Shown: positions 29,965 to 45,740 of the stretch, piece by piece
Layout: each line of letters starts with the position of its first letter
How positions within the stretch are numbered: the stretch's first letter is position 1
Assembly: GCA_964596525.1 (NCBI GenBank)
Contig: CAZQUL010000001.1
Location: forward strand, 601,956 to 665,955
DNA: 64,000 nt
From: an uncultured Gammaproteobacteria bacterium
Lineage (GTDB): Bacteria > Patescibacteriota > Patescibacteriia > Magasanikbacterales > GWA2-37-8
Reading direction: 5' to 3'
The notes under the pieces: model-generated
Database searches by the model: none
Told to the model about the DNA's origin: nothing
The model's input: the letters and a program-made list of their open reading frames with translations, nothing else
Translations under genes and position numbers: made by a program

Positions 29965-30347
29965 AAGGCAGGCTAATATCTTGCCGGTAAAGCCCGGCTT
30001 TCAATGCACACTTATGACGCGATTGCTCTGATGCGTCTACTTTGGCTTTTGTTGGTAACTCAGACTTCACAAATATTCGCGTATGGTCTAAAATGGCCTT
30101 ACAATTTAAATGGCCTAAACCAGGTGAGGCATCTCCCTGGCATGGCCATAAGTCCTCAACAGTAGAAAGCTCCTAGTCAGAGCGCTGTTGAGGCTATGCA
30201 GGGAAACTTGCATAGGTCCCGTAAGGGATCGCTGACCGGGAGCTTTGTGTTTTTCCGGAAGCTGCCTATTTCCAAGTTTTTATGACAAAACAATCATTTA
30301 AGGAAGCTTAAAAATTTGCTTATTAATTTATTTTTTAGCAAGATTAT

Positions 30348-33339: not shown

Positions 33340-34710
33340 ATGAGGTATGTATTTCCAAAACCCGCGTCGGAAGATGATTTTGAAGAAATGGTCTGCGATA
33401 TTTTTTCTCGAATTTTTCAGAATCCCAATTTGCAAAGATTTGGTCGGCGGGGGCAAGACCAAAAAGGTCTAGATATTTTAGGGGGTTTTGCGGGTCAGGA
33501 TTTTAGCGATGGAAAATTGGCCGCTATTCAGTGTAAAAATCATCCTGCTGGCATTAAATCCTCTAAGCTTAGACGAGAGCTGGAAAAAGATTTAAAGAAG
33601 TTTGATAAATCCGGTCTTCAAATTAAAAAATTTTATTTTGTAACAAGTGCCGAGAGTGACAAAGATTTAATAGAGTTTGTTTTAAAGATAAATAAGGATC
33701 GCAAGAAAAAGAGGAAAAGTTTAGTAACTATCCGTTTTTGGAATTTTATTCAACAAGAAATATTTAAATATCAAGATCTGGTTTATAAGTATTTCACAAG
33801 GCTGCTTCCCTCAGAAAAAGGCCTTGATACCTACATTCCTGATTTAAAAATGAAAAATAGAGAGACTCTTGTCGTAAAATACAATGAACTTATCGATAAA
33901 GAAGCCGTGTTGAAAATTCGTAAATCATTAGAAAGAATTATTGAAATTAATCTTAAAAATCTAAAACAGTCTAAAGAATATAACTTATATATAGGCGTTT
34001 CTTCAAAAGAAAATAGTATCTCTGATGGAGTAGTTGATCTGAATATAGATTTTAGCGACCTTTTTAAAACTGAAGAGAATCTGGAAGAAAACTTTCGGAA
34101 TATGGCTTCTTCCCTAAAAGGTCTTTTAAAAATCCTTGATAATAAAATTTTTTCTAAACAGGTAGTTCTATATCTAGAGACTGAGATAAGCCTCGCTTTT
34201 TTACTTGGATTATTTTTTAGGAAATATAAGTTTAACGTTAAGATAGTTTTTAAAGACCAGGTATGGACCACTTCTCAAAATGATCTTCAGTATGTAGACC
34301 CGCAACTTGTTGATAAAAAGCCGATTTTAAAATTTCCTGAAAATGATCAGGGTGGAATAATAGTAGACGTACGTAACGGTGCTGGCTTAGATATTGAGCC
34401 TGAGGTTCAGCAGTATCTAAATTCAATCCCAAATTCTCCCTCAGTCCTCCTGTCTTATAGAGTAATAGGTGAAAGAATCCAAAATAGTGCGCATGCGCTA
34501 TCTTTTGCAAAAGGAATAGCGGATAAAATTCTTCAGCTCAGAATGTGGAATATTAATCATATCCATCTTTTTTTCGCAGTCCCAAAACCGGTCGCTTTTC
34601 TTATTGCTTATTCCCTTAATACTTTAAATAGTAGTTTGCACCTGTATTTTAGAAGCGCAGATCGTACAACTTATTTAAAATCATATACTATCACTAACAA
34701 TACTTTTTAA
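33340..34710 (+). CDS. CBASS Cap4-like effector candidate: N-terminal Mrr-type PD-(D/E)xK nuclease plus a large C-terminal domain (possible SAVED-like sensor)
   Basis: 456 aa. FEEMVCDIFSRIF...GRRGQDQKGLDILGG...AIQCKNH matches the Mrr_cat restriction-endonuclease fold (D...QxK). About 330 C-terminal residues have no recognisable motif. SD-like aggaag precedes the ATG, 8 nt after the lexA stop. Confidence 0.5.
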   Translation: MRYVFPKPASEDDFEEMVCDIFSRIFQNPNLQRFGRRGQDQKGLDILGGFAGQDFSDGKLAAIQCKNHPAGIKSSKLRRELEKDLKKFDKSGLQIKKFYFVTSAESDKDLIEFVLKINKDRKKKRKSLVTIRFWNFIQQEIFKYQDLVYKYFTRLLPSEKGLDTYIPDLKMKNRETLVVKYNELIDKEAVLKIRKSLERIIEINLKNLKQSKEYNLYIGVSSKENSISDGVVDLNIDFSDLFKTEENLEENFRNMASSLKGLLKILDNKIFSKQVVLYLETEISLAFLLGLFFRKYKFNVKIVFKDQVWTTSQNDLQYVDPQLVDKKPILKFPENDQGGIIVDVRNGAGLDIEPEVQQYLNSIPNSPSVLLSYRVIGERIQNSAHALSFAKGIADKILQLRMWNINHIHLFFAVPKPVAFLIAYSLNTLNSSLHLYFRSADRTTYLKSYTITNNTF

Positions 34711-34713
34711 TAT

Positions 34714-35724
34714 ATGGCCTCTCTTAACTCTTCTTTTGAAGAATTTCTCAGTAAAATAGAACCAAATAGCAAAATCCAACAATATGCGCAAAAAGCCCAT
34801 ATTTCGCTTACAGATCATCTCAAAAACGATGCTGAATTTGGGGAATTTGTTGAAAACTCTTTCCTTTACGGTTCTTATAAGCGGCACACTGCAGTTGGCG
34901 ATATTGAGGATATCGATATTTGTCTAATAACAAATTTTAACTCCAACGATCCTTCATTGAAACCAAGCGAAGTTTTAAGAAAGCTTAAAGCATCGATAAG
35001 TAATTTTTATAAATTAGAAAATAATACTGAAATTCAAAGAAAGTCCGTTAAAGTAAAAGATGCTCTCCCCGATAATCCTTCAGTCGAGATTTCGCTTGAT
35101 GTTCTACCTGCAATCGCACCGTATGGAGAAGACGGTGTTTTATTGGTGCCGGATAAAGAATTGGCAGCCTGGGTGAAAAGTGACCCGAAAGCTCATCTAG
35201 CTTATGCCACAAATCTAAATTCGCCAGAAAATAGTAATGGTCGTTACATTCCATTAGTTAAGTTGATGAAATGGTGGTGGAAATATCAAAAGGAAGAGAG
35301 GTGGCCTGGCGAGAAACATAAACCTAAAGGTTTTTGGGTAGAATGTTTAACGGGATTATTTTTTAATCCAAACAAGGAAAATTGGGCGGAAAATTTTATA
35401 GCAGTTCTTGAAGGTGTTGAAAATAGCTATGGTAGTGCATCTGACGTGCCCGCTTTACCCGACCCAGGTTTGCCGGGTGAGAGCATAAAAACAAAAATGA
35501 CTAATGAGGATTTTCAAGATTTTATTGAAGTCGTAAAGAATTCTTTAGATTTAGCAAGAAATGCATATAATGAGAGCGATAATTTTCTAAGCTCAAAATT
35601 ATGGCAGTCAATTTTTGGACATAAATTTCCTCTCTCCGAAGGAAATGGTGGCTCAGAAAATAAGTCGATAAATCCGAGCGTTGGAATTAAACCTCATCGG
35701 CCGTGGCATGCGTATGTTGAATGA
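34714..35724 (+). CDS. cGAS/DncV-like nucleotidyltransferase (CD-NTase, SMODS type)
   Basis: 336 aa. GSYKRHTAVGDIEDIDICL is the pol-beta NTase GS...[DE]h[DE]h motif as found in CdnC/CdnD-type enzymes. Starts 3 nt after the effector gene. Confidence 0.75.
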   Translation: MASLNSSFEEFLSKIEPNSKIQQYAQKAHISLTDHLKNDAEFGEFVENSFLYGSYKRHTAVGDIEDIDICLITNFNSNDPSLKPSEVLRKLKASISNFYKLENNTEIQRKSVKVKDALPDNPSVEISLDVLPAIAPYGEDGVLLVPDKELAAWVKSDPKAHLAYATNLNSPENSNGRYIPLVKLMKWWWKYQKEERWPGEKHKPKGFWVECLTGLFFNPNKENWAENFIAVLEGVENSYGSASDVPALPDPGLPGESIKTKMTNEDFQDFIEVVKNSLDLARNAYNESDNFLSSKLWQSIFGHKFPLSEGNGGSENKSINPSVGIKPHRPWHAYVE

Positions 35725-36403
35725 AAGCGATAAAAAGTGGTTAAAAGAAAAAAATCCAGGATTAGTTATCGAGCCTGATAAAATAACTGGGACCATAAAA
35801 TTTATAGGCGCTTATAGTCCTTCGCTTGATAAATTTTGGCAAATTGAAAAAGGCGTTGTCCCTAGTAAAGACTCCTATATATTAGGGGGTTCATTTTTGG
35901 TGCGTATTCAGGAGAAGGTCGGCCACAGATTTCCCATTCTCTTTTTAGAGGACAGCAAAATTAAAAAAATTCCAGACCGTCATCTTAACTCAGATGGCTC
36001 TGCATGTCTGTATGTTCGTTTAGAAGAGAGTTTTGTTCTGCCTAATTCTGATTTTAAAATTTTTTTTCAACAATTAATCATTCCTTTTTTATACGCACAG
36101 TTATTTTTTGATAGGAAAGGTTGTTGGCCCTGGGATGAATATTCACATGGTTCGGCGGGGATCTTAGAGTCTTTTTTATATTCAAGTGGAAAAATAAAGG
36201 CAGAAGATTGTTTAATAGAGCTAAAAAAATCCAATGATTGGGAAGATGTTAAAAGGATTTTGTCTCAGAAGAAGATTAAAGGCCACTTGACGAGATGTTT
36301 TTGTCCGAAAAAGGATTATTTAAGACGCTGCCATTCCGATGCTTGGAAGGGGATTATAAAGTTGCATGAAGATATGATTGCTCAAAGAATTTTGATTCCT
36401 TAA
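35714..36403 (+). CDS. E2 (UBC)-like protein candidate
   Basis: ATG at 35714 overlaps the CD-NTase stop. About 229 aa. HLNSDGSACLYV resembles the E2 HPN...C active-site loop, and a beta-meander precedes it. Confidence 0.4.
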   Translation: MLNESDKKWLKEKNPGLVIEPDKITGTIKFIGAYSPSLDKFWQIEKGVVPSKDSYILGGSFLVRIQEKVGHRFPILFLEDSKIKKIPDRHLNSDGSACLYVRLEESFVLPNSDFKIFFQQLIIPFLYAQLFFDRKGCWPWDEYSHGSAGILESFLYSSGKIKAEDCLIELKKSNDWEDVKRILSQKKIKGHLTRCFCPKKDYLRRCHSDAWKGIIKLHEDMIAQRILIP

Positions 36404-36431: not shown

Positions 36432-37142
36432 ATGGAATTAAATCTCAAGCCAAAACAGTATTATATCGACCTTTATGATCATGGGACGGTCGATATTTGT
36501 CGGAGGTTCGACAAGTCATCAGCCGATTATGATCCTATGGAACTTAAGAAAAATAAGATATCTAAACGGCAAACGCTCTTAATAGATAAAGGAGCTCGGC
36601 AATGGCTCGTTCATGTGCAATCCGGCGAGCGGCATTTGAATAAGGAAAAAACTATTCGCGAATGGATGGATGCTGATCAGAAGAGAGACGAGCTGTACGA
36701 ATCTGCCCAGCCTCCCGAAGACATCCCTTGCCTCACGTGCCGCAACCGTCTCAAGGTGGCATGCAAGGAACTTTGGACCGAGCACGAAAAAGAAGATCGA
36801 GTTCTTTTCATGTACGACTGCCCCAATAAGTGCCTTCCGCATCGTGCGTTCTTTTCCGATGGTGAAGAGTGGAGGACGAAGCAACCTGCCTGTCTTCGTT
36901 GTGGATCTCTACTCATCCAAGAATCAGAAGATGACGGGCTTAAGCTCATCACCACATCTTCTTGCAAGAAGTGCAGCCATGCCGAAAAGGAGGAGTATGT
37001 CTGGAGTGCAAAGAAAGGGGAAGATATCGACGAGAACTTTGCTGCCGATCGCGACCGCTATTGTATGACCGACGAGGAAGGCAAGAAGTATCAGGATGAA
37101 AAATGGAACATAGAACGCATCGGAAAGTTCATGAAAGAATAG
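36432..37142 (+). CDS. Double zinc-ribbon protein (CLTC/CPNKC/CLRC/CKKC)
   Basis: 236 aa with four CxxC pairs in the C-terminal half. 28 nt after the E2-like gene. Confidence 0.3.
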   Translation: MELNLKPKQYYIDLYDHGTVDICRRFDKSSADYDPMELKKNKISKRQTLLIDKGARQWLVHVQSGERHLNKEKTIREWMDADQKRDELYESAQPPEDIPCLTCRNRLKVACKELWTEHEKEDRVLFMYDCPNKCLPHRAFFSDGEEWRTKQPACLRCGSLLIQESEDDGLKLITTSSCKKCSHAEKEEYVWSAKKGEDIDENFAADRDRYCMTDEEGKKYQDEKWNIERIGKFMKE

Positions 37143-37157
37143 AAAGAAAAGGAAAAG

Positions 37158-37457
37158 ATGCAGGAAGAAAAGCTCAAGCTAAATCCGAAAGGTTTTCATC
37201 TCGATGGTGCCGGATACGCCTGCTGCATTTGCGGCGATCATACGCCCGAAGGAGATAATTGGCATGAAAAGTACGGAATCAAATGCCTTGTCTGCCAGAA
37301 AGCGATCGACGAGGGCGAGATACCAGCGGCTTTGGCGAAGTACAAAGATAGCTGGTACACCAAGTATGATTTTGAGCACTATTTCAACGTGAAGGGTCCC
37401 GCTCTTAGAATGTGGATCAAGAAAGGTGTTGTCAGTCCGCGCATCATCAGTCATTAG
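37158..37457 (+). CDS. Small zinc-finger protein
   Basis: 99 aa with CCICGDH...CLVCQ. Confidence 0.3.
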   Translation: MQEEKLKLNPKGFHLDGAGYACCICGDHTPEGDNWHEKYGIKCLVCQKAIDEGEIPAALAKYKDSWYTKYDFEHYFNVKGPALRMWIKKGVVSPRIISH

Positions 37458-37487
37458 GGCAAAGGCGAGCATGCGCAGGTATTTCTC

Positions 37488-37754
37488 ATGAGAGATAACA
37501 AGAACTTTCTTCCACCGAAGAATCTGTTAAAGAGCCATAGCGTCAACGAGAGAAAGGAAGGTGGAAAGGTCTGGACGCATATGGAACCCTGGTATCGTTT
37601 TGTTGATCCGTATAAGTACCTAAAGAAGTGCAGGATTATGAACTATTTGCGTGTTGTTCCACCCGAAGAAGTGAAGGCTAGGGAGGAGGAAGAAAAGAAG
37701 AAGTATGAAGAGAAAAAAATCCGTCGAGAAGCTCAAAGAAAAATGCGGAAGTAG
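37488..37754 (+). CDS. Small Lys/Glu-rich protein
   Basis: 88 aa. Charged C-terminal tail EEVKAREEEEKKKYEEKKIRREAQRKMRK. Confidence 0.25.
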   Translation: MRDNKNFLPPKNLLKSHSVNERKEGGKVWTHMEPWYRFVDPYKYLKKCRIMNYLRVVPPEEVKAREEEEKKKYEEKKIRREAQRKMRK

Positions 37755-37774
37755 TGTCGCATTTGTCGTATTTT
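37755..37774 (+). repeat. 20-mer tgtcgcatttgtcgtatttt, copy 1 of a duplicated promoter-like motif
   Basis: 19 of 20 nt identical to 45444-45463. Intergenic, immediately after the 37488-37754 stop. Confidence 0.5.
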
Positions 37775-37819
37775 GTTTTTTTCAATTGTTTTAACTATTC
37801 TATTTCTTACTAAATTTTT

Positions 37820-38119
37820 ATGACTCTTTATATCTATGATACAAGCGGCCGAACAGTAGGTTTCCGGAGAGGAAAGTATATTCACGATATGCATGGTAAA
37901 GCCATAGGGCAGATTAACAGGGAGACGCACGTCCACAAGCTCTCAGGAGAATATGTAGGAGAACTCGATCATGACATGGTGGTTGATAAGCATCTGGGCA
38001 ACCTTGGGAATATTGGAAATCCCGGGAATCCCGGTAATCCAGGTTCTCCGGGCAACCCAGGTAGCCGGGGAAGTGTTAATTATGGTTATCCTGATGTTTT
38101 TTCAAAACTTGAAGAATAA
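37820..38119 (+). CDS. Small protein with C-terminal collagen-like G-X-Y triplet run
   Basis: 99 aa. GNLGNIGNPGNPGNPGSPGNPGSRGS is 9 consecutive GXY triplets, encoded by a 9-nt periodic DNA repeat at 37990-38070. Confidence 0.35.
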   Translation: MTLYIYDTSGRTVGFRRGKYIHDMHGKAIGQINRETHVHKLSGEYVGELDHDMVVDKHLGNLGNIGNPGNPGNPGSPGNPGSRGSVNYGYPDVFSKLEE

Positions 38120-38154
38120 TACCCAAATCTTGACGCGTGTTAATCGATTATCAC

Positions 38155-38236
38155 CCTCCGGCCCGAGTACCTCAGTTTAGCCGCTCGACAGAAAGCCCAG
38201 AAAGCCTTACATTGTTGAAGCTACACTCTCCCGGCC
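38155..38236 (+). repeat. Conserved non-coding element, copy 1 (cccgagtRcctca...gctcgacagaa...ccttacaYtg)
   Basis: About 80 nt, alignable at roughly 70% identity to 45475-45551. Lies 30 nt upstream of the MccF-like gene. Confidence 0.5.
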
Positions 38237-38267: not shown

Positions 38268-39278
38268 ATGAATCAAATTAAAATACTGCCGCCCCAACTC
38301 CTGCGCGGTAAAAAAATAGGAATGATTGCTCCTGCGGATCCGGTCAGGGGCGTTTGTGCTGAAGAAGCTATCCAGCGCGGCTATAAGTATCTAGAAAGTA
38401 AAGGATTCCCTGTCGTAGAAGGGGAATCAGTAAAAATTCTCGCTCAAACCCATACTGCAGGCTCAATCCCTCTTCGCGTAAAAGATATTCATGATTTTGT
38501 GCAGCGTGAGGATATCGGCTGCATTATGGCTTTTTGGGGTGGTTTTAATACCAACCAGTTACTGGATTATCTAGATTACGATTTAATTAAAGTACGTCCT
38601 AAGATTTTTATCGGCTATTCGGACGTGACCGCCCTTACTACTGCTATTACAACCAAGACAGGGTTGGTAACGTTTTCTGGTCCGGGCGGGATTTCTTTCT
38701 CTAAGCCAGAACCTTTTGAATATGCCTGGAATTATTTTGAGAAAGCCTGTGTTAAACCTCAAAAAAATATTTTGATAGAAGCGTCGCCGGAGTACGCTGA
38801 TGATCTCTATTTTTTGAGAAAAGATAATGATCGCCGGATCATAAAACGCAATGACGGAATAAAGGTATTCGTTAACGGCAAAGCTAAAGGCGAAGTCGTT
38901 GCGGGAAACCTACAGACACTGCTCGTTTTAAGTGGCACTCAGTACCTGCCGGATATGGCCGGGAAAATCCTTTTTGTTGAGGAAGACGAAACCAGCACGC
39001 CATCGCATGTCGATAGATTTATCTGCCAGGCTAAGCAGTTGGGATGGTTCGAAAAGATCTCCGGAATAGTTTTTGGGCGCTTTACGGAACAGTCCCAGTT
39101 CTCCCCGAATGATTCTTTTGAAGATCTTTTGAAGGAATATTTTTCTCGCGCTCAGTTTCCGGTGGTCTATAACGCCGATTTTGGGCATTCAGATCCGATG
39201 ATTACCATACCAAACGGCGGAGTTTGTTCTGTAGACGGCGGACAGATCAGTTTTGAACAGTCGGTTTCAGCAACATGA
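38268..39278 (+). CDS. S66-family LD-carboxypeptidase / MccF-like serine peptidase
   Basis: 336 aa. GYSDVTAL (nucleophile Ser) and DFGHSDP (His) are the S66 catalytic motifs. Confidence 0.75.
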   Translation: MNQIKILPPQLLRGKKIGMIAPADPVRGVCAEEAIQRGYKYLESKGFPVVEGESVKILAQTHTAGSIPLRVKDIHDFVQREDIGCIMAFWGGFNTNQLLDYLDYDLIKVRPKIFIGYSDVTALTTAITTKTGLVTFSGPGGISFSKPEPFEYAWNYFEKACVKPQKNILIEASPEYADDLYFLRKDNDRRIIKRNDGIKVFVNGKAKGEVVAGNLQTLLVLSGTQYLPDMAGKILFVEEDETSTPSHVDRFICQAKQLGWFEKISGIVFGRFTEQSQFSPNDSFEDLLKEYFSRAQFPVVYNADFGHSDPMITIPNGGVCSVDGGQISFEQSVSAT

Positions 39279-39456
39279 AGTAAATCCGTAAGAGCGCCTG
39301 AAAGATTATAGATTAAAAATACTATCATTACTCCACCATTCGGGCAAGTATACTTCGGGTTCCTCATTGACCTGAAGATAAATGCATTGTAGTTTTTCTT
39401 GTGCGGCAATCGATGAACAAGCGCCCTTTTACAACTCTTCAGACAGGTGGTAAATC

Positions 39457-40194
39457 ATGGAATCTCTCGACCGTCTCTATTTCGGCACCTGGCAGTTGGG
39501 AGGGCAGTTCAAAAGCTTTTCTTCCCTTGAAATCGAAGCACTCTTACGCTTTGCTCTTGATTCCGGTATCCGACGTTTTGATACGGCAGCTGTCTACGGT
39601 GGCGGGAGAGTCGAGGAAATGCTCGGCCTCTGCCTTCCGGAAGATGCGGTTATCGTAACCAAAATACCGGCGATCCAAAAACCTGATCTTAGTTCGCCCA
39701 GGCCGATCCAAGAGTGCTACTCACACGATTATCTCTTTAGCAGCCTGGAGAACTCTTTGCGCCGTCTGCGGAGATCTTCCGTCGATACGGTTCTCCTCCA
39801 TAACTGGCTGCCATCATGGTCGTCCGCTGGAAACGAAGTTCTTCAATGCCTGGGTGAAATGAAAAATAAAGGCCTGGTCAAAAGAGTGGGGATTTCTCTC
39901 CCCGACGACTTCGGTTCCTTGCTCGATCAAACAGTCTTATCCTGCATTGACGTCGTCGAAGCCCCGTTTAATCCAGGGCAGCAATGGATCCTAGAGCAGC
40001 TTCCTGACCCGCTTAAGATCAAAAAGGAAGTGCTCCTGAGAAGCTTATTTTGCCAGGGCAAACTGCTTCGTGGACGCTCGGCCGAACCGATACTGCATGA
40101 CGCGCTCAAACTCGGCACGTCGCTCGTCATCGGGATGACAGCTAAAGAACAGATCACTCAGAATATTGAGTGTCTGAAAGGATCAGTCACATGA
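39457..40194 (+). CDS. Aldo/keto reductase family oxidoreductase
   Basis: 245 aa. FGTWQLGG...FDTAAVYGGGRVEEMLG is the AKR N-terminal signature. Confidence 0.7.
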   Translation: MESLDRLYFGTWQLGGQFKSFSSLEIEALLRFALDSGIRRFDTAAVYGGGRVEEMLGLCLPEDAVIVTKIPAIQKPDLSSPRPIQECYSHDYLFSSLENSLRRLRRSSVDTVLLHNWLPSWSSAGNEVLQCLGEMKNKGLVKRVGISLPDDFGSLLDQTVLSCIDVVEAPFNPGQQWILEQLPDPLKIKKEVLLRSLFCQGKLLRGRSAEPILHDALKLGTSLVIGMTAKEQITQNIECLKGSVT

Positions 40195-41426
40195 GTTCCA
40201 AGCAAGAATACTTCGCGGCCGTTAATTCCGAGCCGCTTATTACTATTAAAGGTCGGACTACCGGAGAGGAATTCGCGCTACGCGAATATACCTACGGGGC
40301 CCTTGTTCCTGACAATCAGCACCCTCTTTCCTCGGTCAGTGTCTCCAACAGTTCTCTGAGTATCGATCTGTGGATCGGTTGCGCCTGGCAATGCCGATAT
40401 TGCCATGTTCAGGGAACCTACCAAGATCTGGCGGAACAGGGTGCTATGCCGAGACGCCCGAGACGGCGCAATTCGTTTTCCGTCGATCAAATTCTGGATG
40501 AGCTCGTTAAGCATCCGTTTTTCATCGCCGACGAGACGATTATCAGTATCGGAACAGCCAGTACCGAACCGTTCGCGCCGGGGCCGGTCACCGAAAGCAC
40601 CTTCGAGATCATGAACGCCTTTCTCCGGCGGGAACTCCGGAATCCTTTCTGGATCGTTACCAAAGGCGGCGTTCCCAAGGGGAGAAAGCTCGACTTCGCC
40701 CGGATTTCGAACGTAACCCGCGGGCTTATGCTATCGCTATGCTGGGCTGACAATCCTGATACGATCGAGCCGGCTCATAACAACCGCTTCCTTAATGCTG
40801 CAGAAGCCAAAGAAGCGGGAGCTACTGTCGCTTGGTATATGCGGCCGATTGTTCCGGAATGGAGCGGTAATCGTGATCGCATTGAGATGATGATGCTCTG
40901 GGTCAAAAAATACTACAGCGGCGTCATCGACATGATCGTTCCCGGCGGCTTGCGCTGGACCGAAGGGATTGAAAATGGCTTAGTGGAGATTCATAACCTT
41001 CCTATGCCCAGTATCCCTCGGGATGACAACGTGAAATCCCTGCCACAAGAATTGGTGGATGCGATTTTCTCGCTGAGCGCTGAGCATTTTCCGGGTATTC
41101 CGGTCTATCTCAAATCGTCATGTGCCCTTACGCGAATGCTGAAAATTCCAAGCATCACCTCGGTGCAGGTTTTCGCTCGGCAGGAATGTGAGTCGTCTCA
41201 CTGTCCTCTAGCCCAGCGTCAAATCTGTGCTCAAGGAGCAGCGTACACCATGACAACTGAGCGGGCACAGAGCGTTCTTGATGCGCTGGGAATTCCGGCA
41301 TGTGTCGTAAGTTGGGACGCTCACCGCGGACTTGTTACCCATCCTGAGATGAGTAATTTCAGCTATGCGGTCAGGCAGACGGTATTCAAACATCTGGCAC
41401 GAGGAGGCCTTCATGAAGTTCTCTGA
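40170..41426 (+). CDS. Radical SAM enzyme (SplB-like CxxxCxxC)
   Basis: 418 aa. GCAWQCRYCHV is a CX3CX2C cluster motif. The start may be at the internal Met at 40191. Overlaps the AKR stop. Confidence 0.7.
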   Translation: MSERISHMSSKQEYFAAVNSEPLITIKGRTTGEEFALREYTYGALVPDNQHPLSSVSVSNSSLSIDLWIGCAWQCRYCHVQGTYQDLAEQGAMPRRPRRRNSFSVDQILDELVKHPFFIADETIISIGTASTEPFAPGPVTESTFEIMNAFLRRELRNPFWIVTKGGVPKGRKLDFARISNVTRGLMLSLCWADNPDTIEPAHNNRFLNAAEAKEAGATVAWYMRPIVPEWSGNRDRIEMMMLWVKKYYSGVIDMIVPGGLRWTEGIENGLVEIHNLPMPSIPRDDNVKSLPQELVDAIFSLSAEHFPGIPVYLKSSCALTRMLKIPSITSVQVFARQECESSHCPLAQRQICAQGAAYTMTTERAQSVLDALGIPACVVSWDAHRGLVTHPEMSNFSYAVRQTVFKHLARGGLHEVL

Positions 41427-42537
41427 AGACGCCCAGCGTCACTTCCAACGTTTCGGTTTCGAGTGGCAGGAGGGCGGCCCGATCGTGAGCGCTAATTCCA
41501 AGCTCTTGTTCAATATCTCCGGAGGGGTCGTATTCGAGGAAGCGATCTGCTACGGAGCCGCTCCTACAAAACGGCGCGTGGTATCGGTTCAGACCTGCCT
41601 CAGAACGGACGGCTGGGAAAAGATTGGGCTGTCCGGCCGACACCATCTGGCTTTCGACATGCTCGGTCACTTCTCTCTGTATGAGAAGGGTGGACGTGAA
41701 ACGAAAGAACTGATGATTGAGAGCGCCTGGCGCTATCTGACAGATTTTTTAGAGATTAGTTCTAACAGTCTGTCAGCGACCGTTCATCCCGGTGACCACG
41801 TATCGTCAAAGATATGGGAGAGCTTGGGAGTTAAGACGGTGCTCAACGATGGGAACATCTCGCACACTCCCGCCAGAAACCGTTGCGGCATGCGCACGGA
41901 AATCGTCTGGAAAAATCCGAGTACGCAGCGACCCATCGAGCTGTGGAACTTAGTCTTCACGGAGTTCGAGGGTACCACGCTCTTTGAGTGCCCGCTTTCC
42001 ACAATCGCCGCTGATTCCGGGGCAAGTATCGATCGCATCGTTACGGCAGTCGAATGCTGTTCTAGCGACTACGATAACTCGAACTGGAAGAGTGTCGTTA
42101 GTTTCCTCTCCGAGCTGTCCCGGATTAACGACCGAGCTCTCGCGTGCCGATTGGCTGATCTTGGTAAAGCGGCAACACTGCTGATGGGAGAAGGGCTTCG
42201 ACCGGGAAACCGAGCGGCAGAATATGTCCTTCGGAAAATCATCCGTGAAGCCCTTGTCCTGTGCCAGCAAGCATCTATCCCAGCTGGGGACTTCGCAACA
42301 GTGATGGCAGAACGTTGGGATTCCTCTCAAACAGCGCAAGCCGCGTTTGTCGAAGAGGCAGTCAGATTCGAAAAAGCCCTGGATCGGGGAAGAAAAGAAC
42401 TGGCAAAGCTCTCTGTCCGCCGGAATGGCCCTCTCACCGAACAAGACGTTGAATACCTTGCATCCACGTTCGGTTTTCCTAAAACTCTCATCAAGTTCGG
42501 AGAATCCAAACGGGAGACGGGGGAACACAATGAATAA
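41413..42537 (+). CDS. Stand-alone alanyl-tRNA synthetase catalytic-domain paralogue
   Basis: ATG at 41413 follows a ggagg SD and overlaps the rSAM stop. RHHLAFDMLGHFSL matches AlaRS RHHTFFEMLGNFSF, CGMRTEIVW matches GPCGPCTEIF, ELWNLVFTEF matches EIWNIVFMQF, and IAADSGASIDRI matches VDTGMGLERI (Ala-binding Asp conserved). No editing or C-Ala domains. Confidence 0.7.
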   Translation: MKFSEDAQRHFQRFGFEWQEGGPIVSANSKLLFNISGGVVFEEAICYGAAPTKRRVVSVQTCLRTDGWEKIGLSGRHHLAFDMLGHFSLYEKGGRETKELMIESAWRYLTDFLEISSNSLSATVHPGDHVSSKIWESLGVKTVLNDGNISHTPARNRCGMRTEIVWKNPSTQRPIELWNLVFTEFEGTTLFECPLSTIAADSGASIDRIVTAVECCSSDYDNSNWKSVVSFLSELSRINDRALACRLADLGKAATLLMGEGLRPGNRAAEYVLRKIIREALVLCQQASIPAGDFATVMAERWDSSQTAQAAFVEEAVRFEKALDRGRKELAKLSVRRNGPLTEQDVEYLASTFGFPKTLIKFGESKRETGEHNE

Positions 42538-43288
42538 TAATCTTGTCTTCGAACTGGGCGACGTCTTGCGTGGCCTGCCTGGTATCCAGCTGCTCTTACA
42601 GGTCGGGCTACAGAGGGATAACGAGAAAGATAAAGTCGATTTACTGGCAGGTTGCGCTCGGGGAAGTATCGAGGGGTATGCTAGCCCTGTCCAGTCACTG
42701 CTTAAAGATCGGTGGCCGAACGGAACATCGTTCGTTTGCGATGATAGCGTTCGGTTTGACCTGCCAATCGGAACCGGGGGGATCGCCCTGTGTGACTCAT
42801 CCGTGTTGGTGAGCCAAGTCAAAGAGTGGTCTGCGGGGAAAAATATAAGTGGGCAGCATCGTCCCTGGGCCACTGCGTACTGGGTGCCGGAAGCCTTGTG
42901 CGGAGACATTGCAACGGCGGAGATTCTCTACGACCCCGACAGCACCAGCGCTCTACTGAAAGAACTTGTCGCTGCTTATCCGGTTCCGCTCTCAAAAGCG
43001 ATAACCGACCTGTGCGTGGATGAGCTGAGGCAGAAGATGCAAACGTCCGAAAGACTGCTTGATGGGGATGGGTTGGTTGAGCTGGAGCTATGCATTTCAG
43101 ACGTGGTTGCCGCGCTAGTCCGGCTGGCGTTCGCTCGTAGCCGCGTATATTTCCGCGGTTTCCGATCGCTTGAACAGCAGGCAAGATTGCTTAAGCCAGC
43201 TGATCTCGCCCTCTACCACCTTGCCATAAAGCTATCCGGTAGGAAGAAAGTAAAAAATCTCCTGAAGAACATCCGGGAGATTCTCTAA
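42530..43288 (+). CDS. Hypothetical protein (possible NTase/helical-domain protein)
   Basis: About 252 aa starting at MNNNLVF, overlapping the previous gene's stop. No firm motif. Confidence 0.35.
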   Translation: MNNNLVFELGDVLRGLPGIQLLLQVGLQRDNEKDKVDLLAGCARGSIEGYASPVQSLLKDRWPNGTSFVCDDSVRFDLPIGTGGIALCDSSVLVSQVKEWSAGKNISGQHRPWATAYWVPEALCGDIATAEILYDPDSTSALLKELVAAYPVPLSKAITDLCVDELRQKMQTSERLLDGDGLVELELCISDVVAALVRLAFARSRVYFRGFRSLEQQARLLKPADLALYHLAIKLSGRKKVKNLLKNIREIL

Positions 43289-43319
43289 TATGGAGGCCTA
43301 CAACCGTACGCCTCCTTTT

Positions 43320-43925
43320 TTATTTGAGCATAATTTTTTGGCCATTTTTTATAAACACGGCTTGAGAGTTGTTTATCCGCTCAACGACCACTCCATGTTT
43401 TTTTTCAAAGACTTTCGTTCTCTCCTCTAGTTCGGAAGAATAATGGGGGAGAATGGTAGTGTCTACTAAATCAAGTCCCACTAATTCTTTCAGACTGAGG
43501 TCGTTCTTGTCATCTAATACCTCACCGGCGATCTCGATGGATGGACCGAGAATAATGCTCCCCGCACTTACACCGATATATATGCCATCTCTTTCCAAGA
43601 GATTTTTGATAGCGTCTTTAAAATGGGTTTCCCGTGCGAATTTAAGAAGCTTAAAGGTATTGCCCCCGCAAACGTAGATTATTCCATATTTTGAAAAATC
43701 CCGGGCAGGCTCTGTTTCAAGATCAGTAAATTCAATATCTTTAAATCCAAGATCAGCAAATTGCTTATGTGCCAGTTGGGAGTATTTATTAAGCTCCTTT
43801 CCGTCAGCTGCTGTGGTGATAATAGCCACTGGTTCTCTTTTCTCTAGAGTAAGGCTTTTTAGCTGTTGAACGACCGTGTCGGCAGAGAGGCCGGTAGAGG
43901 TTAGTAGAAGCGCTCCATAATTCAT
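43320..43925 (-). CDS. Peptidase E-like (S51 family, class I glutamine-amidotransferase-like fold) dipeptidase
   Basis: 201 aa. ...YVCGGNTFKLL...GVSAGSII... matches the S51 Ser/His nucleophile-elbow context. Confidence 0.65.
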   Translation of the reverse strand: MNYGALLLTSTGLSADTVVQQLKSLTLEKREPVAIITTAADGKELNKYSQLAHKQFADLGFKDIEFTDLETEPARDFSKYGIIYVCGGNTFKLLKFARETHFKDAIKNLLERDGIYIGVSAGSIILGPSIEIAGEVLDDKNDLSLKELVGLDLVDTTILPHYSSELEERTKVFEKKHGVVVERINNSQAVFIKNGQKIMLK

Positions 43926-44085
43926 AGGTTTTTGTGTAAGCGATCGGTAGAGATTTGAGTTTATAGTATAAAATAAGGCTTAAAAAGAAACAAACATTTG
44001 AACGCTTATCTTTTTAATTGTTATTATCAAAGCCCTGTGCTACCATCGTCTCGGCTGGTAAATCTCAGAAGGAAGGAATGCCGCC

Positions 44086-45378
44086 ATGAAGGTACCGTAT
44101 AAAACGACCGAAGAAGTGCGACAGACGTTTCTGGGCTATTTTCTCAAGCACGACCATCAGCTCGTGGAGCCATCAGGGATCATTCCGAAGAATGATCCGA
44201 CGCTCATGTTCATCAACTCAGGCATGGCTCCGCTTAAGCCCTATTTCCTCGGCCAAGCGAAGCCGCCCTATCCGCGCCTCACGAACGTACAGGATTGTAT
44301 CAGATTTGTGGACGTTGAGAGCGTCGGCGACTCTTACCACGGAACCAGCTTCCGCATGATGGGTTCCTGGTCTTTCGGAGACTACTTCAAGGAACGGGCC
44401 ATCGAGCTCGCCTTCGAACTGATTACCGTTGGATTCGGCATTCCCGCCGACCGTCTCTGCGCCACTGTATTCATGGCTGACGAAAGTCTGCCGGGAGTTC
44501 CGAGTGATGAAGAATCTGCGCGCATCTGGGAGAAATTCCTGCCGCGGGATCGAATCATCGGGCGTCCGCCTGCCGACAACTTCTGGGGTCCGGCTGGAAC
44601 AGCTGGCCCCTGCGGCCCGTGCACCGAAATATTCTTCGATCGCGGCAAGGAATTCGCCGAGAAAGAAACTGATGACGCGCTTGTCCCCGGGCGGCACATC
44701 GAGATCTGGAACGCCGGAGTGTTCATGCAGTACTTCAAGGACGAGCAGGGAAATTTCACCCCGCTGCCCATAAAGTGCGTGGATACCGGAGCCGGGCTGG
44801 AGCGGTTCGCCATGATTCTCCAAGACCGCGCTTCGATCCACGAGATTGACCAGTATGATTCGTCCTACCAGCTCATCCATCAGAAGATCGGCGATGCGGT
44901 ATGGACGCGGATCATCCTCGATCACCTCAAGACGTCGATTATGATGCTCCGCGAGGGTATCATTCCGAACAACACTCGGGAGGGATACCTTCTGCGCCGC
45001 GCTCTCCGGCGAGCGATGATCGGCATGTTCCTGCGAGGGGTCAGCCTGAGTATTCTTGAGGAGTGGATGGAGTCGCTCAGCCAGGTGATGGACAACAAAG
45101 ATCTGACCATGCGCCAGAAACCGGCTATCGACCGCTGGCTCAGCATAGAACGTGACGGCTTTGAAAAACTGATGCAGCGCAGCAGGAAGCATCTGGACAA
45201 AATCGCCTCAGCTAAAGAACTGGACGCGCACTATGCTTTCACGCTCAAGACCGGCATGGGAATTCCCGAAGACCTGCTAGAGGAATTTTGCCTTCGCCAG
45301 GGCATCGCTTTTCCTAAAGCCGGTTTCCTCCGGCTTATCGAGGAGCATAAAGACATCTCTCGGCAGCCGAAAAAATAG
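44086..45378 (+). CDS. alaS: Alanyl-tRNA synthetase N-terminal fragment (aminoacylation plus tRNA-recognition domains only)
   Basis: 430 aa collinear with E. coli AlaRS residues 1 to about 460: FINSGM, HGTSFRMMGSWSFGDYFK, NFWGPAGTAGPCGPCTEIF, EIWNAGVFMQY, VDTGAGLERF. Ends before the editing domain and is diverged at normally invariant positions. Confidence 0.75.
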   Translation: MKVPYKTTEEVRQTFLGYFLKHDHQLVEPSGIIPKNDPTLMFINSGMAPLKPYFLGQAKPPYPRLTNVQDCIRFVDVESVGDSYHGTSFRMMGSWSFGDYFKERAIELAFELITVGFGIPADRLCATVFMADESLPGVPSDEESARIWEKFLPRDRIIGRPPADNFWGPAGTAGPCGPCTEIFFDRGKEFAEKETDDALVPGRHIEIWNAGVFMQYFKDEQGNFTPLPIKCVDTGAGLERFAMILQDRASIHEIDQYDSSYQLIHQKIGDAVWTRIILDHLKTSIMMLREGIIPNNTREGYLLRRALRRAMIGMFLRGVSLSILEEWMESLSQVMDNKDLTMRQKPAIDRWLSIERDGFEKLMQRSRKHLDKIASAKELDAHYAFTLKTGMGIPEDLLEEFCLRQGIAFPKAGFLRLIEEHKDISRQPKK

Positions 45379-45443: not shown

Positions 45444-45551
45444 TGTCGCATTTGTCTTATTTTAACTTCTAGAACCCCGACCCGAGTGCCTCAAATTCAT
45501 TGCTCGACAGAAGGGCTGGAAACCCTTACACTGATTGCAGTTCTCGGGTAC
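45444..45551 (+). repeat. Conserved non-coding element, copy 2 (20-mer tgtcgcatttgtcttatttt plus an 80-nt core)
   Basis: Aligns to 37755-37774 and to 38155-38236. Sits upstream of the CxxC-x17-CxxC gene. Confidence 0.5.
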
Positions 45552-45626
45552 TTAACTCGAGTGGCCCGCACTGCATGGTTAGTTTCAGAGCGCCCGAATA
45601 CTGCGGGTCTTTTATATGAAGAACTT

Positions 45627-45655
45627 AAAAATCCGATTGATAAGATCGGATTTTT
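45627..45655 (+). terminator. Perfect 11-bp hairpin in a 5' leader (attenuator/terminator-like)
   Basis: aaaaatccgat-tgataag-atcggattttt, then a U-rich tract. Located between the conserved element and the start codon at 45741. Confidence 0.4.
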
Positions 45656-45740
45656 AAGTTGCCTTTTATTGAAAATAACACTAGAATCCAATTCTAGTGA
45701 GTAGTAGCCCGCACTTTAGCAGGCATGATTTTAAACCACT

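Follow-up and report, generated by a model that had tools for sequence, protein, structure and literature searches.

Stress promoters of the sigmaB/sigmaF type follow the consensus GTTT-N12-17-GGGTAY, and the CIRCE/HrcA system comprises heat-shock promoters controlled by a repressor. As in these regulons, a single non-coding module precedes many unrelated genes, many of them of the repair or stress type (MsrB, PCMT, NUDIX, MscS), in the family of elements described here, two copies of which lie in a 64,000 nt stretch (hereafter, the window) of contig CAZQUL010000001.1 from a member of the Patescibacteria. Likeness to sigmaB/sigmaF promoters extends to a 23-mer that starts with GGGTAC, 15–17 nt past a conserved CCCTTA, and to the presence of repeat boxes upstream. 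Unlike sigma-factor sites, however, the element is conserved for 17 nt beyond the putative -10 and for about 60 nt upstream; no sigma or anti-sigma gene is linked to it, and many copies would drive only a terminator. Unlike CIRCE/HrcA cassettes, it lacks the left half of CIRCE, and comparison with the consensus sequences did not reveal the half-sites of either CIRCE or CtsR operators. The element also recalls the Correia elements of Neisseria and the pneumococcal BOX elements, being a modular intergenic unit of ~100 nt, able to supply a promoter or a hairpin and occurring also as partial copies; these are species-specific, whereas the element hardly varies between highly divergent lineages, lacks terminal inverted repeats and is found at low copy number (pairs, not dozens per 100 kb). 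Its ends and its 1–2 copies per locus likewise differ from those of miniature inverted-repeat transposable elements (MITEs) and repetitive extragenic palindromes, and neither repeat nor profile searches found a third copy in the window.

We favor, with moderate confidence, the reading that both repeats in the window are members of one family of non-coding promoter/operator cassettes, widespread in Patescibacteria, the full form of which would give rise to a short hairpin RNA or a leader. The Patescibacteria (candidate phyla radiation, CPR) make up a large, mostly uncultured share of bacterial diversity; to our knowledge, almost nothing is known of their gene regulation, and a literature search on their non-coding RNAs (ncRNAs) retrieved nothing relevant. 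A cassette of ~100 nt that contains a 23-nt stretch identical across dozens of divergent contigs, and that is not in Rfam, offers a searchable handle on a phylum-wide signal or small RNA.

An exact search for the 23-mer (pattern GGGTACTTAACNCGAGTGGCCCG) retrieved 62 metagenome contigs which, together with three close relatives, constitute the family; profile searches added six diverged copies and one copy comprising the 5′ half only (L127:3206-3135). Over ~100 nt we could align 51 distinct full copies and six divergent second copies, as well as copy 2 from the window and the copy in L085 (alignment A3, 57 sequences). The layout of the family consists of a tandem GTCTCATTT box, a GACCC-N7-CYTCAAA box, an A-rich promoter-like stretch ending in ACCCTTAYAnTG and the invariant 23-mer GGGTACTTAACCCGAGTGGCCCG, followed by an intrinsic terminator or by a co-directional gene, often of the repair or stress type. 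Invariant or nearly invariant positions in alignment A3 are GACCC plus a C and a T at fixed positions of its box, A.A.CCCTTA and the 23-mer. Terminator-like sites were found within 90 nt past the 23-mer in 20 of 53 copies, as compared to 32 of 310 random windows, and ~15 copies have a co-directional open reading frame (ORF) starting 1–70 nt downstream. These ORFs specify MsrB, an MsrQ-like reductase, PCMT, two NUDIX proteins, HIT, a YfiH-like protein and MscS, as well as a DedA/VTT protein, VanW, a free ThrRS editing domain, nucleotidyltransferases and a methyltransferase; no protein family recurs beside the element across loci. The tandem GTCTCATTTGTCTCATTT, allowing up to 3 mismatches, has 26 sites in 468 kb, 21 of them directly upstream of the element; control loci from other phyla, 659 kb in all, contain no such site. 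Many members carry an inverted AAATGAGACAC copy 20–45 nt further upstream. There were no matches for a strict core pattern in GTDB genomes, for a three-block promoter pattern in metagenomes or for two patterns in viral contigs. The original prediction would have been refuted by a lack of further copies and of conservation in relatives, which is clearly not the case, given the 62 contigs and the orthologues in L085 and L154/L155; because of these copies and orthologues, we consider the element functional and conserved rather than a one-off local duplication.

In the window, the 20-mer TGTCGCATTTGTCKTATTTT occurs at 37755-37774 and 45444-45463, with no other match over the whole window at up to 3 mismatches; the chance expectation is 0.03 and two matches were reached in 0 of 100 shuffles, which bears out its predicted duplication. 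Independently of the 20-mer, we detected an ungapped direct repeat, D5 (38158-38214 and 45477-45533), of 57 nt and 75% identity. Its conserved blocks are, in order, CCCGAGTRCCTCA, GCTCGACAGAA and CTTACAYTG, separated by 8 and 12 nt, and the longest block common to both copies is 11 nt. A profile made from copy 2 and one orthologue retrieved copy 1 at E=6e-10, and the family profile retrieved it at E=8e-5 over positions 6-72. There is, then, an alignable duplicated core, as predicted, but the 80 nt assigned to it, reaching 38236 and 45551, are too long: the similarity stops around 38217/45536, just past CCTTACAYTG. The components of both copies are listed below.

37755-37774, plus strand: upstream tandem-repeat box of copy 1 (TGTCGCATT TGTCGTATTT), detached from the core and 45 nt before the Bflower ORF
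38150-38217, plus strand: copy 1, 5′ half only, found by repeat detection, promoter scan and profile, with neither 23-mer nor terminator
38160-38174, plus strand: GACCC-type box of copy 1
38185-38190, plus strand: -35-like TCGACA of copy 1
38208-38213, plus strand: -10-like TACATT of copy 1
45444-45463, plus strand: upstream tandem-repeat box of copy 2 (TGTCGCATT TGTCTTATTT)
45469-45545, plus strand: copy 2, 5′ half, including a 13-nt variable linker
45479-45493, plus strand: GACCC box of copy 2
45504-45509, plus strand: -35-like TCGACA of copy 2
45527-45532, plus strand: -10-like TACACT of copy 2
45546-45568, plus strand: invariant 23-mer GGGTACTTAACTCGAGTGGCCCG, foldable into an 8-bp stem with one bulge and a 5-nt loop
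45569-45613, plus strand: 3′ tail with remnants of the second motif of the family (TTAGTTTC ... GCGCCCGAATAC), ending in a terminator-like hairpin (45592-45608) plus a T-tract

Copy 2 (45444-45613) is thus a full member of the family. A promoter scan identified TCGACA-17-TACAYT inside both copies, with the conserved blocks of the repeat coinciding with the hexamers and the variable block with the spacer. The hexamers of this TCGACA-N17-TACAYT arrangement are invariant in copy 1, copy 2, L085 and L154, whereas the 17-nt spacer differs at seven positions; in the clade of the window, the site therefore has the conserved hexamers, with a distance inside the usual 16–18 nt, and the variable spacer of a sigma70-type promoter. 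This fits the shared promoter put forward in the original prediction, as the part common to both copies is exactly the 5′ promoter-like half. Across the family, the best sigma70 scores average 8.3 bits, compared to 5.9±2.4 in shuffles and 5.5 on the opposite strand, which is a modest enrichment, and the -10 ends 12–13 nt before the 23-mer in 15 of 50 copies and 22–23 nt before it in seven of 50. We also discarded a minus-strand promoter in the box region, where the opposite strand scores below shuffles, and other roles for the 20-mer: a sigma70 promoter (L085 does not preserve its TATTTT, and a conserved -35 is missing) and a sigma54 site or a terminator for the gene upstream (only copy 1 has the hairpin).

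We favor a promoter/operator cassette because of the modularity of the family, in which the 5′ half appears alone before genes twice and the 23-mer alone once: window copy 1 and L127:3206-3135 consist of the 5′ half, each followed by an ORF, and L108 contains the 23-mer without the 5′ half, 25 nt past a tRNA-Ser gene. A profile search with the separate modules yielded no shortened copies beyond copy 1 and L127. In our model, the tandem GTCTCATTT-GTCTCATTT box, often with the inverted AAATGAGACAC upstream, would be the operator for a DNA-binding regulator; in the full cassette it is followed by the GACCC-N7-CYTCAAA box, the core-promoter-like stretch (TCGACA-N17-TACAYT in the clade of the window), a variable linker of 13–17 nt and the 23-mer. 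Transcription would start a few bases before the 23-mer, and so this would form a 5′-proximal stem-loop; the transcript would then either stop at the intrinsic terminator, as a ~75-nt RNA in the case of copy 2, or continue into the downstream gene. Copy 2 represents a complete, self-terminated unit, and copy 1 a broken one, with its operator box split off by the Bflower gene and the MccF-like gene in place of the 23-mer and the terminator; what is left of it would be a promoter/operator half placed to drive the MccF-like gene. The two loci would consequently share regulation, not a metabolite-sensing RNA.

Several observations weigh against this model. One subfamily (L109, L114, L121, and L127) lacks a decent sigma70-like site and keeps CCCTCA-N16-GGGTAC; the real promoter may therefore be of another type, for instance with GGGTAC as a -10 similar to that of sigmaB/F promoters. 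The conservation of the GACCC box and of ACCCTTA exceeds the needs of an ordinary promoter, the transcription start is a prediction from consensus sequences, and we found no candidate regulator gene consistently linked to the element. The 23-mer hairpin, the sole consensus structure obtained with RNAalifold, is modestly stable on its own (-8 to -9 kcal/mol, z -1 to -2) and shows no covariation (0 compensatory pairs), as follows from the retrieval of the copies by exact match; among diverged copies, three single-sided changes keep its pairs (U.G to U-A in L112b and L154, U.G to C-G in L098b) and about as many break them. Lastly, the paralogues in L109 and L114, which are unrelated loci, have the same sequence all the way from GACCCCGACCC to the end of the 23-mer and no similarity beyond these limits, as would also be expected of one transcribed or mobile unit.

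Indeed, that these boundaries lie exactly at GACCCCGACCC and just past the 23-mer would be expected if the stretch from the GACCC box through the 23-mer, in some copies with a second hairpin and a further GACCCGAGTGCC, were one stand-alone structured small RNA. Its promoter would reside within the tandem-repeat box or close to it, proteins would bind the repeated ACCCGAGTG motifs of what would be a sponge or scaffold RNA, and copy 1 would be a 5′ fragment, or pseudogene, that chances to precede the MccF-like gene. We consider this, the main rival of our model, rather unlikely, although the repetition of the ACCCGAGTG motifs speaks for it, and although it would account for the strong conservation of the GACCC box and agrees with some of the best promoter matches having more upstream positions, where the -10 ends around -48. 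Between the GACCC box and sequence past CCCTTA, a candidate helix accumulates 24 cells with double-sided changes, versus 12.5±3.3 in shuffles (reached by 1 of 500), but it is 60% paired and the relatedness of the sequences could explain, by inflating it, this statistic. Additionally, a subset of copies has a second hairpin past the 23-mer, with compensatory changes in the arms (CAUUGA/UCAGUG, GUUUGA/UCAAGC, CCAUGA/UCGUG), a conserved CAACUUAGUA loop and then another GACCCGAGTGCC; mere remnants of this hairpin persist in window copy 2. Conversely, RNAalifold predicts nothing outside of the 23-mer, the pairing of the GACCC box with the linker preceding the 23-mer is at shuffle level, L108 has the 23-mer but not the box, two other loci have the box but not the 23-mer, and no sigma70-like site is consistently present upstream of the box. 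A closing stem around the 23-mer was also considered and is not conserved.

Copy 2 does display the features expected of an independent small-RNA gene, namely a promoter-like site of its own, intrinsic-terminator-like sites (45592-45613 and 45622-45660), conservation across genomes and the lack of a conserved ORF: by reading of the sequences, a 14-codon ORF within it is stopped after the ATG in L085, and a small ORF spanning the 23-mer is contradicted in every frame by stops or by the lack of a conserved start. Together with ~40% of the family, copy 2 resembles the genes for small trans-acting RNAs in being a short intergenic promoter-to-terminator unit, often in two direct copies. Unlike these genes, the cassette is conserved mainly in the sequence that precedes its likely start, and it also heads protein-coding genes; moreover, we identified no target complementarity and no Rfam family.

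The original prediction also proposed a cis-acting leader RNA, of the riboswitch or attenuator type. Such a leader would sense a ligand or a tRNA and control the downstream genes through the terminator at 45622-45660. Searches of Rfam 15 retrieved, at the gathering threshold, a LOOT RNA (30112-30230) alone in the window and nothing at either copy; both copies gave only noise at E≤10, T-box included, and 19 family loci (146 kb) yielded tRNAs and one LOOT, with nothing at the element. SRP RNA, 6S RNA, tmRNA (including its two-piece form), RNase P and T-box were all rejected, having no support from Rfam or ARAGORN and lacking their motifs. The minimum-energy fold of 45466-45668, in which the 3′ arm of the first terminator is base-paired to the GACCC box, has z=-4.6, and there are terminator-like hairpins past copy 2 and ~15 family members directly before co-directional genes; also, CCCGAGTGG in the 23-mer is shared with the D-arm of neighboring tRNA-Ser genes. 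The low z-score of copy 2, however, is due mainly to its two terminators; the part common to both copies shows no conserved fold or covariation, the region of copy 1 folds at shuffle level (z=-0.1) and has neither hairpin nor terminator, and the downstream genes are functionally heterogeneous across the family. Considering also that the gene behind copy 2 has a promoter of its own, we find a leader RNA very improbable.

The region between copy 2 and that gene, which encodes a zf_Tbcl_2 (CxxC-x17-CxxC) protein, contains two further features.

45622-45660, plus strand: 17-bp perfect palindrome with A-tract and T-tract flanks, the second of the terminator-like sites, bidirectional and at the end of the unit
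45659-45687, plus strand: promoter of the zf_Tbcl_2 gene, TTGCCT-17-TAGAAT, the 3′ limit of the copy-2 unit

The palindrome, which is identical in L001 and had been described as a perfect 11-bp hairpin, is preceded by the other terminator-like site (45592-45613). The promoter and 5′UTR hairpin of the zf_Tbcl_2 gene (45659-45740 in the window) are conserved before its homologues in L002 (1100-1190), L003 (260-342) and L004 (9905-10000), all of them without the element; these homologues are 64–69% identical and share the promoter CTTGC..-17-TAGAMT and the 5′UTR hairpin (AGCCCGCACTTTAGCAGGC). Because two terminators and then the gene's own conserved promoter follow it, copy 2 is a separate short unit and not the leader of the zinc-finger gene, which should not be annotated as being under the control of the element. 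The claim that both copies immediately precede genes consequently holds for copy 1 and not for copy 2.

For copy 1, the neighboring features are as follows.

37820-38119, plus strand: ORF for a 99-aa Bflower and collagen-repeat protein (Pfam Bflower, E=4.5e-11), between box and core
38268-39278, plus strand: gene for an MccF-like LD-carboxypeptidase (Pfam Peptidase_S66 and S66C)
39367-39395, plus strand: promoter of the aldo-keto reductase (AKR)/radical-SAM-like/AlaRS-paralogue operon, TTGACC-17-TAGTTT, separate from the repeat

According to Pfam, the gene order leading to copy 1 is a CBASS-like operon, a broken zinc-ribbon gene and the 20-mer; then come the Bflower/collagen-like ORF, the core, the MccF-like S66 peptidase, AKR, a radical-SAM-like protein, a 390-aa AlaRS paralogue, a DUF4037-like protein, an S51 peptidase (minus strand) and a 430-aa AlaRS catalytic-domain protein (AlaRS430), and finally copy 2, with its 20-mer and core, and the zf_Tbcl_2 gene. 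The presence of an ORF between the two parts of copy 1 was correctly anticipated; in its product, a beta-flower (Bflower) domain is joined to collagen-like repeats of the GNP/GSP type. This ORF is absent from the equivalent place in L085, where the gap between box and core is 11 nt. The MccF-like gene, whose exact protein sequence is not on record, takes the place that the 23-mer has in full copies, starting ~55 nt past the -10-like TACATT of copy 1; at this position L085 has the 23-mer and the terminator instead. It appears, then, that the MccF-like gene captured half a cassette.

The AlaRS paralogue of L085 is 89% identical to that of the window, and its full element, which matches copy 2 at 85% identity across 134 nt, lies between the upstream gene and the AKR operon, the place of copy 1. 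Downstream of its core there are a conserved stretch (ATTGCAGTTCNCGGGTACTTAACNCGAGTGGCCCGCACTG), a terminator and then the AKR operon's own promoter, which is conserved between the window and L085 and recognizable in L086 and L088. Likewise, L154/L155, with an AlaRS430 94% identical to that of the window, have a full element downstream of this gene, in the place of copy 2; the 23-mer region of L154 is a variant (...CTCAAGTGG...). Since the upstream flank in L085 and the downstream flank in L154/L155 both carry full copies, the cluster is bracketed by two copies in the clade of the window, which upholds the direct repeats originally described around it. In more distant loci (L086, L088, L152, and L153), no element was found within 10 kb of the cluster; the element is therefore not a component of the cluster as such, absent as it is from four independent cluster loci, and the bracketing should be annotated for this clade only.

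The cluster itself is conserved in Patescibacteria (window 39457-45378; L086, L088, L152, L153, and L156) and comprises the 430-aa AlaRS catalytic-domain protein, AKR, a ~408-aa radical-SAM-like protein, a ~372-aa AlaRS-related protein, a 251-aa DUF4037-like protein and an S51 peptidase, the window version being rearranged, with the MccF-like peptidase added. Such a gene content points to a pathway of the aminoacyl-nucleotide or peptide type. Outside the CPR, the 430-aa protein has best matches of only 35–40% identity; the GTDB loci anchored on AlaRS430, which are from other phyla only and encode proteins at this level of identity, served purely as negative controls.

These flanking copies could alternatively mark a hot spot for recombination or insertion, with accessory genes inserted beside or between tandem cassettes and the repeats as segment borders; here, the cargo would be the 7.3-kb AlaRS-paralogue cluster with the MccF-like gene, acquired or duplicated. 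The copies are in direct orientation in all nine two-copy loci, 0.6–7.3 kb apart and enclosing variable cargo (VanW, the free ThrRS editing domain, a methyltransferase, HIT, nucleotidyltransferases); both flanks carry copies in the window's clade, and the cluster exists in four other genome contexts without any copy. Direct orientation, however, also results from simple tandem duplication, and a hot spot would account for the position of the copies, not for the conservation of their sequence across the phylum. As in tRNA-linked islands, whose att repeats it brings to mind, there are direct repeats flanking accessory genes, a strong linkage to tRNA-Ser and a 23-mer resembling the 5′ third of tRNA-Ser. 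Unlike att repeats, the repeated part is the 5′ promoter part and not a tRNA 3′ end, the repeats have diverged to 75% identity and lack a long identical core, with 11 nt as the longest block, and no integrase, transposase or recombinase domain is encoded in or beside the segment, nor is any protein family recurrent near the elements; the unit also lacks terminal inverted repeats. A hot spot is thus doubtful, and the mobile 7.3-kb unit contemplated in the original prediction loses ground for the same reasons.

Returning to the cassette, tRNA-Ser genes account for 18 of the 25 tRNA genes in 392 kb around the elements, 16 of the 18 being on the same strand and mostly upstream; in L133, the copy abuts the 5′ end of the tRNA-Ser gene. 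The core of the 23-mer, CCCGAGTGG, is identical to positions 7-19 (D-arm) of the neighboring tRNA-Ser genes. The resemblance is limited to CCCGAGTGG, with no cloverleaf or tRNA-like domain, and ARAGORN found no tRNA or tmRNA in the window and none at the element in 60 loci. It is conceivable, if improbable, that the 23-mer is a tRNA-Ser mimic in an undescribed regulatory system extending across the Patescibacteria, in which a tRNA-Ser reader or a dedicated regulator would bind it and the ACCCGAGTG boxes. If true, the status of serine-tRNA or translational quality control would be coupled to a regulon of repair and editing genes, including the free ThrRS editing domain, the MccF-like peptidase, the AlaRS paralogues, MsrB, PCMT and NUDIX. 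A free-standing ThrRS editing domain of archaeal type (tRNA-Thr_ED, E=5.5e-21) is encoded directly behind a cassette and between two copies, at L098:4234-5519 (minus strand); together with the linkage to tRNA-Ser and the AlaRS paralogues, it hints at a theme of serine mis-charging and quality control.

A second conserved element, a rod-like inverted repeat of ~125 nt (GCGGAGAG(TAAG)GGGATTCGAA ... CGAATCCCTTACTCTCCGC), lies directly past the cassette terminator, 55–90 nt past the 23-mer, in at least 12 loci (including L094, L095, L098, L105, L111, L114, L117, L118, L128, and L144). It has no match in Rfam, is absent from the window and could be a MITE or another ncRNA.

Just upstream of copy 1 in the window, the CBASS-like defense operon (33340-36403, plus strand) encodes a SAVED-domain effector, a SMODS cyclic-nucleotide synthase and a prokaryotic E2-like protein. 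Three same-frame ORFs (36432-37754, plus strand) correspond to one gene, 49% identical to L085:1-774 and with zinc-ribbon CxxC pairs, broken by two TAG codons in the same frame, at 37140 and 37455; since TAG serves as an ordinary stop in the window (18 of 72 long ORFs), the gene is probably a pseudogene. Homologues of this zinc-ribbon protein, for which there is no Pfam match and which adjoins four copies, are also next to the cassette in L104 and L117. Finally, the LOOT RNA of the window (Rfam RF03000; 30112-30230, plus strand) is full-length and scores 78.5 bits, compared to a gathering score of 46.4, and a second LOOT is found at L145:7508-7632 (minus strand), in a metagenome locus that also carries the cassette.

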